Part shown: piece after piece, positions 47,758 to 51,582 of the stretch
How positions within the stretch are numbered: the stretch's first letter is position 1
Layout: each line of letters opens with the position of its first letter
Source of the DNA: a virus
Virus record (IMG/VR): IMGVR_UViG_3300043493_000066
Location: 1-57,696 of that record
Strand: one strand, 5' to 3'
Length of the DNA stretch: 57,696 nucleotides
Program-made: the position numbers and the translations under genes
The notes under the pieces: generated by a model
Databases searched by the model: none
What the model saw: the letters and a program-made list of their open reading frames with translations, nothing else
Told to the model about the DNA's origin: nothing

Positions 47758-48049
47758 TACAGCACCGCCGTATCTGACGGACGAGGAGATCGAGTTCATC
47801 ACGCGGCCGCGCACGCAAGGCGCGGCGCGCCTTCGCTACTTTCGCGACGTGCTGAAGGTACGGGCGGAGCCACGGCCGAACGGGCAGCCGCTCGTCTGGC
47901 GGTCGGACTTCGAGACAACCCGCCGACGCGAGCAGGATGCAGCCAATGACGGCCGTACGCCATCCAGAGATTGGTCTGCGTTCGAGAAAAAGGTACGCTA
48001 TGAGGACGGTGGGGAGAAAACGGAAAGACGGCAACCCGCTCGGGCTTGA
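47744..48049 (+). CDS. DUF4224-like protein, excisionase candidate (101 aa)
   Basis: YLTDEEIEFITRPRTQGAARLRYFRDVLKV...NGQPLVWRSDF. Lies directly upstream of the integrase. Confidence 0.55.
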   Translation: MPVANTAPPYLTDEEIEFITRPRTQGAARLRYFRDVLKVRAEPRPNGQPLVWRSDFETTRRREQDAANDGRTPSRDWSAFEKKVRYEDGGEKTERRQPARA

Positions 48050-49094
48050 GCGGCGGGTCGAGTTCCATCACGGTCAGTTCCGGTATCTGCACCGGGACGG
48101 TCGGAAGGAATCGCTCGGTGCGGATCTGAAGCGCGCGAACCAGCGCGCCAGGCTGTACAACGATCCTCGAGAGGACTACGGGACGGTCGGCTACTACCTC
48201 GAGCTGTTCCTCGCGGACGCGCGCGCTGGGCGACTGCCCGCCGGCAGGAAGCTCTCGGAGCGCACGATCGCGGACTACGACTCGGAGACGGCGAACATCA
48301 AGATCTCGCCGATCGGCAAGCTGCTTCCGACCGAGATCGTGCTCGAGCCCAACCTGCTGTCCGAGTACCGCGATCGGCGTGTCAGCGACGAAGGCAAAGG
48401 CCAGGTGCAGGCGAACCACGGCCTCGCGCTCCTGTCGTCGATGTTCTCCTGGCTGATCGAGAAGGGGCACTGCCCGGGCCTGCTGGTGAACCCGGTCAAG
48501 GCCATCAAGCGATTCGCGCGCCGGCCGAAGGATCGTTACGTCGAGGACCACGAATACCAGCCGGCCTACGTCGAGGCGATCGCGAGCGTGAGGATGGCGA
48601 TGGCGCTCGTCTACAGCACGCTGCAGCGCCCGTCCGACGTGCTGGGCCTGCCGCCCTCGCCCGCGCGCGCGAAGACCGTAGCGGGCAAGCAGAAGCGGAT
48701 CCTGCCGGTGCGGCAGTCGAAGACGGGTCGCACCGTCGACATCGAAGTTACGCCCGAGCTCGAGCAGATGCTCGGCATGCTCGCGCCTGCGCCGGAAGAG
48801 AAGGTGGTGAAGCTGCCGACGGCGCTCGTCCACGGCCGCGGCGGCAAGCCGTACACCGAGGACGGCATGGCAGCGATGCTGCGCCGCTACTGCATCAAGG
48901 CGAAGGTGCGCCCGTTCGGGTTGATGGACGTGCGCGCGAAGGGCGCGACCGACATGTACCTGCGCGGCGTGCCGCTCGAGCAGATCCAGATGCTCATGGG
49001 ACACAAGTCGGTGCAGACCACGGAGATCTACATCAAGCGGCTACTCGGCACGATCTCGACGGTCGCTCCGAACAGCGTTGCGGTGGGGAATTGA
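48000..49094 (+). CDS. int: Tyrosine integrase (364 aa; alternative start 47937)
   Basis: C-terminal catalytic region ..RAKGATDMY..GVPLEQIQMLMGHKSVQTTEIYIKR. Adjacent to attP. Confidence 0.9.
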   Translation: MRTVGRKRKDGNPLGLERRVEFHHGQFRYLHRDGRKESLGADLKRANQRARLYNDPREDYGTVGYYLELFLADARAGRLPAGRKLSERTIADYDSETANIKISPIGKLLPTEIVLEPNLLSEYRDRRVSDEGKGQVQANHGLALLSSMFSWLIEKGHCPGLLVNPVKAIKRFARRPKDRYVEDHEYQPAYVEAIASVRMAMALVYSTLQRPSDVLGLPPSPARAKTVAGKQKRILPVRQSKTGRTVDIEVTPELEQMLGMLAPAPEEKVVKLPTALVHGRGGKPYTEDGMAAMLRRYCIKAKVRPFGLMDVRAKGATDMYLRGVPLEQIQMLMGHKSVQTTEIYIKRLLGTISTVAPNSVAVGN

Positions 49095-49319
49095 TGCTGC
49101 AAGTTGTTGAACGTGCGTCTCTTGACACGCGGGAATCAGCGCAGATTTATTCCCCGCTCTATACAGAGAATCCCCGCTGCACCGGCACGTTATACAGATT
49201 TCGAACTTGGACTGTTAATCCGCAGGTCCCAGGTTCGAGCCCTGGTCGGGGAGCCAATAATCAATCGCTTAGCGCAGCGCGCAGTTTCGCATTTCGCAGA
49301 ATTTTCCCCAGTGGGGAAT
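49085..49319. repeat. GGGGAAT / ATTCCCC repeats flanking the attP core (candidate integrase arm-type sites)
   Basis: ggggaat at 49085 and 49313, gggaat at 49131, attcccc at 49149, aatcccc at 49169. Palindrome ttccccaGtggggaa at 49304-49318. tccccgct and tatacaga each occur twice. Confidence 0.45.
49209..49256 (+). other. attP core: 3' ~48 nt of a tRNA-Asn(GTT) gene including CCA
   Basis: ggactGTTaatccgcaggtcccaggttcgagccctggtcggggagcca closely matches the anticodon loop, T-arm and acceptor 3' strand of bacterial tRNA-Asn. No matching 5' half lies upstream. Confidence 0.7.
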
Positions 49320-49326
49320 ATCGGGG

Positions 49327-49524
49327 ATGAAGCTCTTCAAGATCCAGGTGCAGTTCACGTATCGGCGCGCCGGCCGCACCGGCGCCGAGGTGATCGTGCA
49401 TGCGCGCTCGAGCGCGGCCGCGGAGAAGCTCGTGCAGAGGAAGTTCCCGAAGTGCGAGATCAGCAAGGCGCTCGACCTCGGCCCGACGCCGAAGCACTTC
49501 GTGATCGCCGACCTGCTGGACTAG
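49327..49524 (+). CDS. Hypothetical small protein (65 aa)
   Basis: Very high GC3 and natural composition. Converges on the Mom-like gene, with stops sharing CTAG. Confidence 0.6.
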   Translation: MKLFKIQVQFTYRRAGRTGAEVIVHARSSAAAEKLVQRKFPKCEISKALDLGPTPKHFVIADLLD

Positions 49525-50318
49525 TTCGCCTTAGGGTACGGCAGATTAGTCCACGCCGGCCGCCGGCGCTGATCGCCGAGCCACCAGGTGTACGTGTGGT
49601 TCCCAGGATGGCGCACTGCCTGGAATCCGCCCTCCTCCAGCGCGCGCGCCACGTAGCCGTGTCCCGTCTCGAGCGGCCGCCGATCGGGCGCACCCAGAGC
49701 TCGCAGCTGGTCGTAGGCATACCCTGCCCCGCTCTCGTCGTTTCTCAGCTTCGACATCGCGCGGCCGTCGACCACGCGGCCGTCTCGAGAGAGGACCATC
49801 AGCTGCGCGCGTGAGCGGCCGCGGTAGGACGCGTTCAGCGCCTGGTACACGGTGCCGACGTGACCGCGTTTGACCACGCGGCCGTCCGCGTCGATGCGCT
49901 CGAGCGGATCCGAATAGGACAGCACGCCGTCGATGCTCTTCCGCGGCCGCAGCAGGCGGAAGGCGCGCGCAACGAACCACGACTCCGCGTTCGCGGCGAC
50001 TTGATCGAGCAGCACGAGACGCGCGAGCACGGCGCCGGCGTTCGGCTCGAGCCCCTCGAAGTACTTCGGCACGATCGCCTGATGCACGGGCCCGGCGAAG
50101 ATTGCAACGCCCACAAGCTCGTCGCGCTCGAACCTGCCCTTCACGAATAAGCCGGCGCTGAATCGCGCGGCCGGGAACGTGCCGGCATAGTGATGGCGAA
50201 CGGTGAAGGCCTTCGCGATATCCCGGCCGATCTCGTCGACCGCCGCGCGACTGGTGTCGAAGACCTCGCCTGCAGGCCGGTAGCGCGGCCGGCGATCGCG
50301 CCAGCGTTGGCAGATCAT
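49521..50318 (-). CDS. Mom-like / GNAT-fold putative DNA-modification protein (265 aa)
   Basis: VRHHYAGTFP...LVGVAIFAGP...LARLVLLDQVAANAESWF...GVLSYSDP...GHVGTVYQALNASYRG pattern, recalled from Mom-family methylcarbamoylation proteins. Not verified by a search. Confidence 0.45.
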   Translation of the reverse strand: MICQRWRDRRPRYRPAGEVFDTSRAAVDEIGRDIAKAFTVRHHYAGTFPAARFSAGLFVKGRFERDELVGVAIFAGPVHQAIVPKYFEGLEPNAGAVLARLVLLDQVAANAESWFVARAFRLLRPRKSIDGVLSYSDPLERIDADGRVVKRGHVGTVYQALNASYRGRSRAQLMVLSRDGRVVDGRAMSKLRNDESGAGYAYDQLRALGAPDRRPLETGHGYVARALEEGGFQAVRHPGNHTYTWWLGDQRRRPAWTNLPYPKAN

Positions 50319-50494
50319 CGCGCGGCCCCTTTCTGCTCGGCGAGCATCAGCTTTTCCAGCCGCCTAAATTCCGCGCATGCGGCGCGGTAGTCCGCCTTTG
50401 CCCACTTGGTCCGCCCTGCCCTGCGCATCAGACGGTTTCCCGCATCGCGCCCGGCCGCAAAGATCACCGGATAGGTAAGTTGCCGCGCTTGCAT
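50315..50494 (-). CDS. Small ORF translationally coupled to the Mom-like gene (59 aa)
   Basis: AGGAGAAG lies before ATG 50494. Its stop overlaps the Mom-like ATG (ATGA). Hand translation: MQARQLTYPVIFAAGRDAGNRLMRRAGRTKWAKADYRAACAEFRRLEKLMLAEQKGAAR. Confidence 0.5.
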   Translation of the reverse strand: MQARQLTYPVIFAAGRDAGNRLMRRAGRTKWAKADYRAACAEFRRLEKLMLAEQKGAAR

Positions 50495-50535
50495 TCGCTT
50501 CTCCTTTGGCCCCTGAATCCCCCGAGGCGCGGGGC

Positions 50536-50604
50536 TGGAGCTAGAGGGACTCGAACCCTCGGGGAACTGGATCTAGAGCCCGTCCCCGGCACCTGCCTAG
50601 CCCC
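50536..50604 (-). ncRNA. tRNA-Ala-acceptor minigene 1 (69 nt), non-canonical core, loop CUCUAGA
   Basis: GGGGCTA...GAGGG-TTCGAGT-CCCTC-TAGCTCC-A. The acceptor has G3:U70 and A73. There is no normal D-arm. A long interrupted hairpin is capped by a 7-nt loop. Confidence 0.5.
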
Positions 50605-50616
50605 GTGTTTGGGGTG

Positions 50617-50683
50617 TGGAGCTAGAGGGACTTGAACCCTCGAGGTTTGGTTTTTAAGACCTACCTCACGACCTGTTAGCCCC
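50617..50683 (-). ncRNA. tRNA-Ala-acceptor minigene 2 (67 nt), non-canonical core, loop CUUAAAA
   Basis: GGGGCTA...GAGGG-TTCAAGT-CCCTC-TAGCTCC-A. Same acceptor and T stem as minigene 1. Lies about 19 nt downstream of the predicted transcription start. Confidence 0.5.
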
Positions 50684-50709
50684 TTCGGTACTGCCTTGCT
50701 ACGGTTCTA

Positions 50710-50738
50710 ACTATACACATGCGATGTGCGTACGTCAA
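50710..50738 (-). promoter_or_regulatory. Promoter TTGACG-N17-TATAGT with CACAT-N3-ATGTG in the spacer
   Basis: Minus strand reads TTGACGtacgCACATcgcATGTGTATAGT. Confidence 0.6.
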
Positions 50739-50807
50739 GCACTATTTACGGCCTCCAGGCACCGTTCTACATAGCGGAATACCTGTAAATTACCCTTTCG
50801 CAGGTAC

Positions 50808-50836
50808 TTGACACATGCACATGATATGTGTATCGT
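50808..50836 (+). promoter_or_regulatory. Promoter TTGACA-N17-TATCGT with CACAT-N3-ATGTG in the spacer
   Basis: Plus strand reads TTGACAcatgCACATgatATGTGTATCGT. Confidence 0.6.
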
Positions 50837-50898
50837 GTGACCCGTAGCTTGAAGCTACACCCGCGCCTCGGGGGTCAGGGGCCAGGAAAGGCAAGCAG

Positions 50899-51582
50899 AT
50901 GAAAACCTTCACACACGAGCAGTACATCCAGGCAGTCCGCGACATCGCAGTGCAGCGCCTGAGCGCCGAAGAGCGCGCGGCCGCGCTTGACGCGAAGCTC
51001 GTCTACGGCGCCGGCTCGAAGCACACCCGCGGCGTGACGTACTTCGGCTGCTGGAAGAACGGCCACGATCACGCCTTCGCCGAGATCTGCGCGTTCGGCG
51101 AGGATTCCCCGATTCAGGTCGCGGGCACGACGCTGCACGAGCTGGGCCACGTTCTGGCCGGGCTTGGCAAAGGTCACGGCAAGGGCTGGCTGGCCGCGTG
51201 CAAGCGCCTCGGCCTCAACTACGTCCGCGCCGCCGGCACGCAGTACTCGCTCGCCTGCTTCGCAGCCGACATCCGCGAGGCGATCGCCGCGCTGCCCTCC
51301 CCGACCGATGGCCAGCCGCAACCCTTCGGCGGCTTCGGCCCGAACGGCATGCCGATGCAGCTGAAGATCCGCCCCTGCGGCGCCGGCCTCGGCACCAAGG
51401 GCGGCAAGTCGCGCGGCGCCGGTTCGGGCTCGCGCCTTCGCAAGTTCGTTTGCGATTGCGGCGTGATCGCCCGCGTGGCGCGCGACGAGTTCCGCGCCAA
51501 GTGCGACGACTGCGGCTCTTCGTTTAAACGCGTGGACCCGAAGCAGCCCGAGGTCTCGCAGACGGTGCATGACCGAGTCTGA
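50899..51582 (+). CDS. SprT-like HExxH zinc metallopeptidase with C-terminal zinc ribbon (227 aa)
   Basis: TTLHELGHVLAG, and KFVCDCGVIARVARDEFRAKCDDCGSSF. Confidence 0.6.
   Translation: MKTFTHEQYIQAVRDIAVQRLSAEERAAALDAKLVYGAGSKHTRGVTYFGCWKNGHDHAFAEICAFGEDSPIQVAGTTLHELGHVLAGLGKGHGKGWLAACKRLGLNYVRAAGTQYSLACFAADIREAIAALPSPTDGQPQPFGGFGPNGMPMQLKIRPCGAGLGTKGGKSRGAGSGSRLRKFVCDCGVIARVARDEFRAKCDDCGSSFKRVDPKQPEVSQTVHDRV

Follow-up and report, generated by a model that had tools for sequence, protein, structure and literature searches.

Can an RNA that carries the acceptor end of an alanine transfer RNA (tRNA), and whose core is not a cloverleaf, serve as a decoding tRNA? The question is raised by a minus-strand locus of the viral genome IMGVR_UViG_3300043493_000066 (the window below, meaning the whole stretch of 57,696 nucleotides (nt) that was analysed), where an earlier note had recognised two elements of 69 and 67 nt lying 12 nt apart, boundaries that proved exact to the base. 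Judged by comparison with related sequences, both are real structured RNA genes, neither chance assemblies nor decayed tRNAs, and their pattern of conservation points to genes for tRNAs of alanine identity, whose charging is predicted. With moderate confidence, we propose that they act as alanine-charged non-canonical tRNAs which would decode UAG (element 2) and UUA or UUG (element 1). The two genes are located as follows:

50617-50683, minus strand: element 1, a 67-nt non-canonical alanine-type tRNA-like gene
50536-50604, minus strand: element 2, a 69-nt non-canonical alanine-type tRNA-like gene

Read 5' to 3', element 1 is GGGGCTA ACAGGTCGT GAGGTAGGT CTTAAAA ACCAAACCTC GAGGG TTCAAGT CCCTC TAGCTCC A, and element 2 is GGGGCTA GGCAGGTGCC GGGGACGGG CTCTAGA TCCAGTTCCCC GAGGG TTCGAGT CCCTC TAGCTCC A.

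Relatives, covariation and alanine identity

A blastn search of the 601-nt region against GenBank phages gave no match, and an exact pattern of the T arm and acceptor stem retrieved from viral contigs only one ordinary phage tRNA-Ala and one phage transfer-messenger RNA (tmRNA); a gapped version of the pattern returned from the same contigs 16 ordinary short tRNA-Ala genes and two genuine non-canonical elements (L008 and L018; loci are cited by such numbers throughout). As DNA similarity searches were empty, the divergently transcribed HExxH (SprT-like) protein encoded at 50899-51582 was taken as the handle for relatives. This protein led to seven viral and 20 metagenomic loci with 65-95% amino-acid identity, and a covariance model (R1), built from relatives only with the window sequences excluded, found one or two elements beside the HExxH gene in nearly all of them. 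Over model positions 1-69, R1 scored element 2 at 61.3 bits (E ~1e-9) and element 1 at 51.1 bits (E ~1e-7).

The alignment of this phage group comprised 26 elements (20 distinct), whose collection did not depend on G3:U70 and which were aligned with the covariance model (MAFFT misplaces the 5' ends); counts given below for the phage group refer to the 20 distinct homologues unless stated otherwise. Standard pairs occupied 95.8% of the cells (26 elements), compared with 77.6% in shuffled controls and 48-62% in slid-partner controls. Changes on both sides were seen in 14 of the 23 pairs, including all four pairs of a miniature hairpin in the place of the D arm, and this mini D hairpin, the anticodon-like stem and the T stem all covary across homologues. 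Within the acceptor stem, pairs 5-68, 6-67 and 7-66 covary freely, whereas G1-C72, G2-C71, G3:U70, G4-C69 and A73 are unchanged in 20 of 20. Both window elements carry this complete recognition set of alanyl-tRNA synthetase (AlaRS), namely G3:U70, A73, G1:C72, G2:C71 and G4:C69. An invariant alanine set beside covarying pairs is the pattern that selection by AlaRS would be expected to leave, and we regard it as the strongest single result. The acceptor stem GGGGCUA/UAGCUCC is one that we take to be identical to that of E. coli tRNA-Ala, and one relative (L203) encodes CCA after A73.

Within the window, the T-arm motif GGGTTCRAGTCCC is present in two copies against 0.16 expected, a number reached in none of 100 shuffles. 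Folding compared with shuffles gave z = -3.5 for element 1 and a marginal value, z = -1.3, for element 2 alone. These data bear on the suggestion that the elements are decayed tRNA-Ala pseudogenes or attachment-site remnants, decay being an outcome for which the earlier note had itself proposed a check. Default tRNA finders do reject the elements, and an integrase gene is found 1.3 kb away together with a tRNA-Asn 3' fragment, but decay is contradicted by compensatory changes in every helix of the 20 distinct homologues and by their length of 67-69 nt; both halves of the acceptor stem are present, and the attachment site would be the separate tRNA-Asn fragment at about 49196-49256. The probability of this explanation is, in our judgement, next to nil.

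Architecture of the elements

All members share one order of parts: a 7-base-pair (bp) acceptor stem, a linker of 0-2 nt, a hairpin of 2-4 bp, an interrupted stem of 7-9 bp closed by a 7-nt loop, a further 0-3 nt, a canonical T arm and A73. The 3-5-nt loop of the mini D hairpin always holds GG, and the total length is kept at 67-69 nt in the phage group. The outer parts are those of a canonical tRNA, with a 7-bp acceptor stem, a 5-bp T stem and a 7-nt T loop of sequence TTCRANT. The core has neither a canonical D arm (3-4-bp stem, 7-11-nt loop and 2-nt linker at positions 8-9) nor a 5-bp anticodon stem with a 4-5-nt variable region, since the long helix ends 0-3 nt from the T stem. The tRNA-Ala acceptor stem with G3:U70 and A73, the canonical T arm and the lack of a cloverleaf core had all been described in the earlier note; the first two are confirmed, the identity set being invariant in every distinct homologue, and the third is borne out by a fold that covariation in the homologues supports.

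From loop to T stem, the chain measures 9-11 nt, like positions 39-48 of a class I tRNA, while the 5' stretch counts 18-21 nt compared with about 24-26 in class I. On structural grounds, the nucleotides of the variable region would pair with the 3' strand of the would-be D stem, which would yield a single long helix matching the stacked anticodon and D stems in length; by bringing its GG to the T loop, the mini hairpin would keep the dimensions of an L-shaped tRNA. The parts are placed as follows in the two window elements, all on the minus strand:

50683-50677, minus strand: element 1, acceptor stem, 5' strand
50676-50668, minus strand: element 1, mini D region, with GG at 50673-50672
50667-50659, minus strand: element 1, long stem, 5' strand
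50658-50652, minus strand: element 1, loop CUUAAAA, triplet UAA
50651-50642, minus strand: element 1, long stem, 3' strand
50641-50625, minus strand: element 1, T arm
50624-50618, minus strand: element 1, acceptor stem, 3' strand
50617, minus strand: element 1, A73
50605-50616, minus strand: 12-nt spacer between the elements, CACCCCAAACAC; CCA is not encoded after A73 of element 1
50604-50598, minus strand: element 2, acceptor stem, 5' strand
50597-50588, minus strand: element 2, mini D hairpin GGC-AGGU-GCC
50587-50579, minus strand: element 2, long stem, 5' strand
50578-50572, minus strand: element 2, loop CUCUAGA, triplet CUA
50571-50561, minus strand: element 2, long stem, 3' strand
50560-50544, minus strand: element 2, T arm
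50543-50537, minus strand: element 2, acceptor stem, 3' strand
50536, minus strand: element 2, A73

Loop triplets and codon usage

The loop of the long stem is always 7 nt and follows the form N-U-NNN-R-A: U33, A38 and a purine at position 37 (G in 17 elements, A in three) occur in 20 of 20, and variation is concentrated at positions 34-36. The combination of U33 and purine 37 that characterises anticodon loops is therefore present throughout the phage group; in the wider family treated below, U33 is kept and position 37 is often C. On this conservation, the loop appears to behave like an anticodon loop. CUA is the most frequent triplet (six elements), followed by UUC (five), UUA (four), UAA (three) and CUG (two), all of them neighbours that differ by a single base; half match UAG or UAA, and UGA, the main stop, would be read by none. 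Phages with two elements combine a UAA element with a CUA, UUA or UUC element. The CUA and UAA readings of the earlier note are returned identically by ARAGORN in its relaxed (element 2) and mitochondrial (element 1) modes, and conservation of the loop in relatives holds for U33, A38 and purine 37, whereas the middle triplet varies.

The 64 genes of the window end in TGA (44), TAG (13) or TAA (7), and TTA accounts for 11 of 16,277 codons in a genome of 65% G+C, so that the triplets of elements 1 and 2 address the least-used codons. One of these 11 TTA codons lies in a downstream Mom-like gene, whose operon includes the CUA-loop element. Programmed readthrough was considered, the sole candidate being the TAG codon of this Mom-like gene, beyond which 83 codons remain open in frame (49269-49523, minus strand; 90% G+C at third positions). 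The candidate was rejected: the extension is antisense to a conserved small open reading frame (ORF) at 49327-49524, and for this reason is probably an artefact.

The variable triplet also raises the possibility of decoys or resistant substitutes directed against host enzymes that act on tRNAs, with no part in decoding; the targets could be anticodon nucleases, modification enzymes or defence systems that sense the shape of a tRNA or tmRNA. The loop triplets belong to the YUN/NAR-codon group, on which anticodon nucleases often act. A triplet that turns over fast between close relatives, in elements that are phage-borne and expressed early, would suit such a role. Yet no host tRNA corresponds to CUA or UUA, neither the window nor its relatives link the elements to a nuclease or anti-nuclease gene, and the invariant alanine set with A73 would be left unexplained; decoys thus seem quite unlikely to us.

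Transcription unit and proposed mechanism

A near-consensus promoter just upstream of the elements, also part of the first description, was recovered as TTGACG-17-TATAGT, with transcription expected to start about 20 nt 5' of element 1. The flanking features are:

50710-50738, minus strand: leftward sigma-70-type promoter TTGACG-17-TATAGT, matching the consensus at 10 of 12 positions
50684-50703, minus strand: 5' leader of about 20 nt, ..GAACCGTAGCAAGGCAGTACCGAA; a near-identical leader precedes the first element in L203 and L057
50495-50535, minus strand: conserved trailer/leader GCCCCGCGCCTCGGGGGATTCAGGGGCCAAAGGAGAAGCGA, ending at the ATG of a 59-amino-acid ORF

Two promoter-like sites were found where 0.2 were expected, the second (50808-50836) pointing the opposite way. 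Between the hexamers of the leftward promoter lies an imperfect, operator-like palindrome, and at this position the relatives have palindromes that differ in sequence. This divergence suggests that the element promoter is under repressor control, the palindromes fitting different repressor specificities. The divergent-promoter spacers (window 50740-50840; L059-L061) likewise hold differing palindromes, for example CCACTCAATGAGTGG in L059 and ACACTCACTGAGTGT in L061.

From these features we infer processing, charging, ribosomal decoding and biological purpose along the following lines. Elements 1 and 2 would be co-transcribed from the operator-bearing leftward early promoter, and RNase P would cut off the leader of about 20 nt, which is presumably how the 5' end of element 1 is freed. 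The 3' ends would be trimmed and CCA added to both RNAs, as it is not encoded. Each RNA would fold into an L, in which the mini hairpin of 3-4 bp presents GG to the canonical T loop and the interrupted helix of 8-9 bp replaces the stacked D and anticodon stems. Charging by AlaRS would proceed via G3:U70, A73 and G1-G4/C69-C72 without regard to the anticodon; since AlaRS is one synthetase that ignores the anticodon, a single scaffold could carry all five triplets. The free anticodon arm would be the working end, element 2 inserting alanine at UAG and element 1 reading UUA or UUG.

Several observations weigh against decoding of this kind. The core is not a cloverleaf, the U8/N9 linker is mostly absent, the D loop has only 3-5 nt and the anticodon stem exceeds the usual length by 3-4 bp; we know of no bacterial tRNA of such a fold that works on the ribosome. 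In the CUA and UUA members, A36 is followed by G37, where canonical tRNAs for UNN codons have A37. The window genes contain no in-frame stops and no recoding, TAG and TAA serving as ordinary stops, and relatives with UUC or CUG triplets would replace glutamate or glutamine by alanine, which looks harmful. In addition, ARAGORN at default settings reports no tRNA or tmRNA gene in the whole window, and Rfam at gathering thresholds gives no match there. The earlier note's proposal of alanine-accepting decoders is upheld in its alanine identity set and its conserved anticodon-like loop; alanine insertion by suppression is plausible, while the window offers neither recoding nor a credible readthrough gene.

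Recognition by standard detectors

With a relaxed threshold, ARAGORN gives element 2 a very small D arm and the anticodon CTA, and its mitochondrial mode reports element 1 as a D-armless (D-loop) tRNA with anticodon TAA; at default settings it calls one family member (L057, 2643-2711) tRNA(taa). In an Rfam scan of 50400-50850 at permissive thresholds (E up to 10), the top match of both elements was tmRNA (RF00023), with 30.1 and 28.3 bits and E ~1e-10, a value that refers to the 451-nt search. The match covers the full length but deletes about 310 model positions, so that only the tRNA-like domain aligns, and both elements fall below the gathering score of 47. The 20 family loci had no Rfam match at gathering thresholds, and neither ARAGORN nor Rfam assigned the window elements an ordinary cloverleaf with a different anticodon. 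With default detectors negative and the tmRNA match sub-threshold, the elements are tRNA-shaped but lie outside every curated model.

The shared top match with RF00023 would be accounted for by mimics of the tRNA-like domain of tmRNA, binding SmpB, EF-Tu or AlaRS and thereby disturbing or hijacking trans-translation, and the 5' part of some distant members (AUUCUGGUGAAU in L073) is presumably near the D-loop of E. coli tmRNA. Such mimicry is, in our view, very unlikely. Besides the low scores, the tmRNA mode of ARAGORN (-m) returns nothing for the elements even when relaxed; they have no coding part and no pseudoknots, a conserved 7-nt U33/A38 loop would be superfluous in a mimic, and no SmpB-like gene is among the top family matches listed for the part of the window that was scanned.

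Genomic context

The window is a complete temperate tailed phage, encoding terminase, portal, protease, major head and major tail proteins together with an endolysin, holins, a ParB-like protein, a replication protein and an integrase. Downstream of the elements on the minus strand follow the 59-amino-acid ORF and the ORF 50318..49521, which matches Pfam Mom (PF25680, E = 7.7e-21). The earlier note had offered, as one option, that the elements are processing signals for the Mom-like mRNA, and their position between the promoter and the 59-amino-acid ORF and Mom-like gene, on the same strand, is that expected of RNase P or RNase Z punctuation defining the 5' end of this message. Comparative data contradict it: none of the 36 loci encoding Mom relatives has an element. 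The closest relatives, L057/L185 and L203, share the two-element leftward layout; in them a small convergent ORF has its stop codon only a few bases past the second element, and nothing is encoded downstream on that strand; to judge from their sequence, the leftward unit in these relatives is two RNA genes alone. Elsewhere a different gene follows, and a processing signal would require neither G3:U70 nor an anticodon-like loop. We find punctuation scarcely credible, and conclude from the Mom loci without elements and the RNA-only units that the elements are not tied to Mom. A role of Mom as an aminoacyl-tRNA-using, GNAT-like enzyme was ruled out likewise, as no locus with a Mom relative has an element. 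It appears that the 59-amino-acid ORF and Mom entered the window as an insertion that also brought a copy of the conserved leader.

This leader, CCGCGCCTCGGGG(N1-4)CAGGGGCC(A)GGAG, stands before the opening gene of each divergent operon (50495-50535, minus strand; about 50855-50898, plus strand, ahead of the HExxH gene) and is also found in L057-L062, 3' of the tRNA-like element. Other relatives have a single element on the opposite strand, between the rightward promoter and the conserved leader; in the window, a hairpin, GTAGCTTGAAGCTAC, precedes the rightward leader at the place where relatives carry the element.

After the integrase gene (47937-49094) lies the 3' part of a tRNA-Asn (49196-49256, plus strand), extending from the anticodon loop CTGTTAA to ..GGGGAGCCA and present in a single copy in the window. 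The fragment presumably serves as attachment site of the phage, which would mean that host tRNA genes encode CCA. An attachment-site role of the elements themselves was ruled out, as the separate tRNA-Asn fragment serves; partial copies in relatives come with promoters and terminators of their own.

Wider family and antisense partner RNA

A scan of one genome per species, with a pattern that forced G1-G4 and C69-U70-C71-C72-A73, gave 120 loci with many further elements of 66-71 nt and the same architecture. The source genomes are those of Patescibacteria (candidate phyla radiation, CPR), Acidobacteriota, Actinomycetota, Verrucomicrobiota, Alphaproteobacteria and other groups. Since the pattern imposed the alanine end, the evidence from this set is limited to the inner helices; they covary and give the same picture as in the phage group. 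Many of these elements encode CCA after A73. Rfam 15 holds no such family, and no description was found in the full-text literature, a source that leaves most subscription journals outside its coverage; the elements apparently belong to a widespread and undescribed RNA family.

Several single loci deserve mention. Elements of similar architecture with alanine triplets (GGC in L011, 9801-9868; CGC in L171, 6926-6993), both finds of the forced pattern, lie within ordinary tRNA arrays, a hint that the compact fold can take the place of a normal tRNA-Ala. A contig of an uncultured actinomycete (L077, 1339-1409 and 5308-5378) encodes two tRNAs, canonical cloverleaves in other respects, that combine an alanine-type acceptor stem (G3:U70, A73) with the aspartate-type anticodons GTC and ATC; possibly, judging from these features, they are natural mistranslating tRNAs. 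In L102, a collapsed copy retaining the element ends only, GGCCACCCG...CTGGGCTCCACCA, lies at about 200-240, just past the terminator of the element. Transposase genes of IS1595-like (L084, L124, L141, L180) or IS1-like (L092, L137, L138) type occur 25-900 nt from the element in 8 of 31 genome loci, and in the three IS1-like cases the element lies 120-165 nt upstream on the same strand. A linkage to transposases was rejected: the remaining neighbours are housekeeping genes, and the association is no greater than tRNA genes usually show.

Many loci contain a second site that matches the 5' strand of the element's own long stem and its loop. A 16-nt probe matched at 14-15 of 16 positions in nine loci, while four of 644 non-self pairs reached 14 and none reached 15. 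In at least 12 relatives, a short promoter-to-terminator unit starts with 12-19 nt exactly complementary to the long-stem 5' strand and loop, oriented so that the short transcript is antisense to the anticodon arm. The antisense site is always 3-7 nt downstream of a sigma-70-like promoter, and a hairpin or intrinsic terminator comes after it in most loci inspected (called by the consensus scan in L192, L131 and L105 only, and recognised by eye in the others). The partner covaries with the triplet: in the phage group it reads GAA, UAA, CAG or UAG, and CPR genomes have other codons at this place. The partner units are located at:

L192: 3393-3477
L191: about 2198
L186: about 3190
L187: about 1510
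L058: about 4336
L188: about 3025
L061: 741-795
L060: about 2745
L131: 6969-7071
L165: 5442-5491
L105: 3634-3738
L073: 6375-6422
L078: about 7464
L129: about 830

By the evidence of complementarity, the two-RNA arrangement is conserved across very distant lineages. As no further domain is recognisable in the partner, its most likely target is the tRNA-like RNA, and this would mark the anticodon arm as the active part. Both the partner of the relatives and the sub-threshold likeness to tmRNA go beyond what the earlier note had seen. Across the full 57.7 kb of the window, no antisense partner or complementary site rises above background for either element.

The partner could also be taken to indicate that the elements are themselves tRNA-shaped antisense or regulatory RNAs in the manner of P4 CI and P1/P7 C4, the body serving RNase P processing and stability and the loop of the long stem serving as a pairing seed. 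Beyond the covarying complementary unit of the relatives, such RNAs would explain why the loop differs between close phages, as immunity specificities do, and why the elements stand directly behind operator-bearing early promoters. They are nevertheless unlikely in our estimation, as the window holds no target for either loop and RNase P needs none of the invariant G3:U70, A73 and G1-G4. The partner, moreover, consists of an antisense segment and a terminator only, and so looks like a regulator of the tRNA-like RNA rather than its target, and the Rfam scan of 50400-50850 (E up to 10) lists no family of the C4/CI type.

A more far-reaching proposal, which we put forward only tentatively and consider possible rather than likely, is a hitherto unrecognised all-RNA module resembling a toxin-antitoxin system or a switchable decoder, distributed from CPR bacteria to proteobacterial phages, of which the window elements would be orphan members. 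Its effector or toxin would be a stable AlaRS-charged tRNA with any anticodon, mistranslating or suppressing a chosen codon. A short separate RNA, its 5' end antisense to the anticodon arm, would mask that arm, covariation between the two reflecting a private specificity. Elements without a partner would survive because their triplets address UAG and UUA, the codons that the host uses least.

Comparison with known systems and implications

Among known systems, the elements would work most like suppressors derived from tRNA-Ala. With tRNA-Ala and its minihelix they share G3:U70, A73, G2:C71, G4:C69, the canonical T arm and GG in a D-like loop. They differ in a D arm reduced to a hairpin of 2-4 bp with a 3-5-nt loop, usually in the missing 8-9 linker, in an anticodon stem of 7-9 bp that absorbs the variable region, and in triplets that are CUA and UAA, not NGC. 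tmRNA (RF00023) has in common with them the alanine acceptor with G3:U70, the T arm, a D region that bears GG but no normal D stem, and a long helix abutting the T arm; the elements, in contrast, are 67-69 nt long, have neither an mRNA-like tag frame nor pseudoknots, and carry an anticodon-like 7-nt loop. The CI RNA of P4 and the C4 RNAs of P1 and P7 are stable phage antisense RNAs of about 70 nt, processed by RNase P from the leader of an early operon, whose loops pair with complementary RNA. The likeness to them lies in the complementary partner RNA of the window elements' relatives; the differences are the missing target in the window, the conservation of the full alanine set and a partner that is a separate small RNA, not a site in a controlled mRNA.

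Suppressor tRNAs of recoded phages are canonical cloverleaves and occur with phage genes that have in-frame stops. The elements share with them a phage-borne gene with a CUA triplet (bioRxiv 10.1101/2021.08.26.457843). They are distinguished by the non-canonical fold, the alanine identity and the use of TAG and TAA as ordinary stops in the window. tRNAPyl is without G18G19 and the T-psi-C sequence, whereas the elements keep GG and a T-psi-C-type sequence. What they resemble in tRNAPyl and mammalian mitochondrial tRNA-Ser is a compact core traded for a longer anticodon stem: in those tRNAs a shortened D loop, a lengthened anticodon stem and a shortened variable region preserve the overall size (PMC7609411). 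tRNAPyl carries CUA, and some allo-tRNAs carry G3:U70 and insert alanine at amber codons (PMC7609411). The acceptor/T branch of allo-tRNAs is 8/4 or 9/3 and their variable arm is long; the elements have a 7/5 branch and no variable arm.

According to an engineering paper (PMC11551756), all known bacterial tRNAs are canonical cloverleaves. If the present reading is true, a conserved and covarying tRNA of alanine identity with another core would be a natural counter-example, present in phages and many bacterial phyla and invisible to standard annotation. It would also provide material for genetic-code engineering, namely an AlaRS scaffold that is blind to the anticodon and has a compact body. 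If decoding is true, temperate phages with the standard code would carry amber or ochre suppressors as well as missense alanine tRNAs, and their part in host shut-off, counter-defence and regulated readthrough would become a testable question. The covarying antisense partner points to control of a tRNA anticodon at the RNA level, for which no precedent was found in the literature searched; the two-RNA module of the relatives would be new as a category if it turned out to be a decoder that is regulated or toxic.

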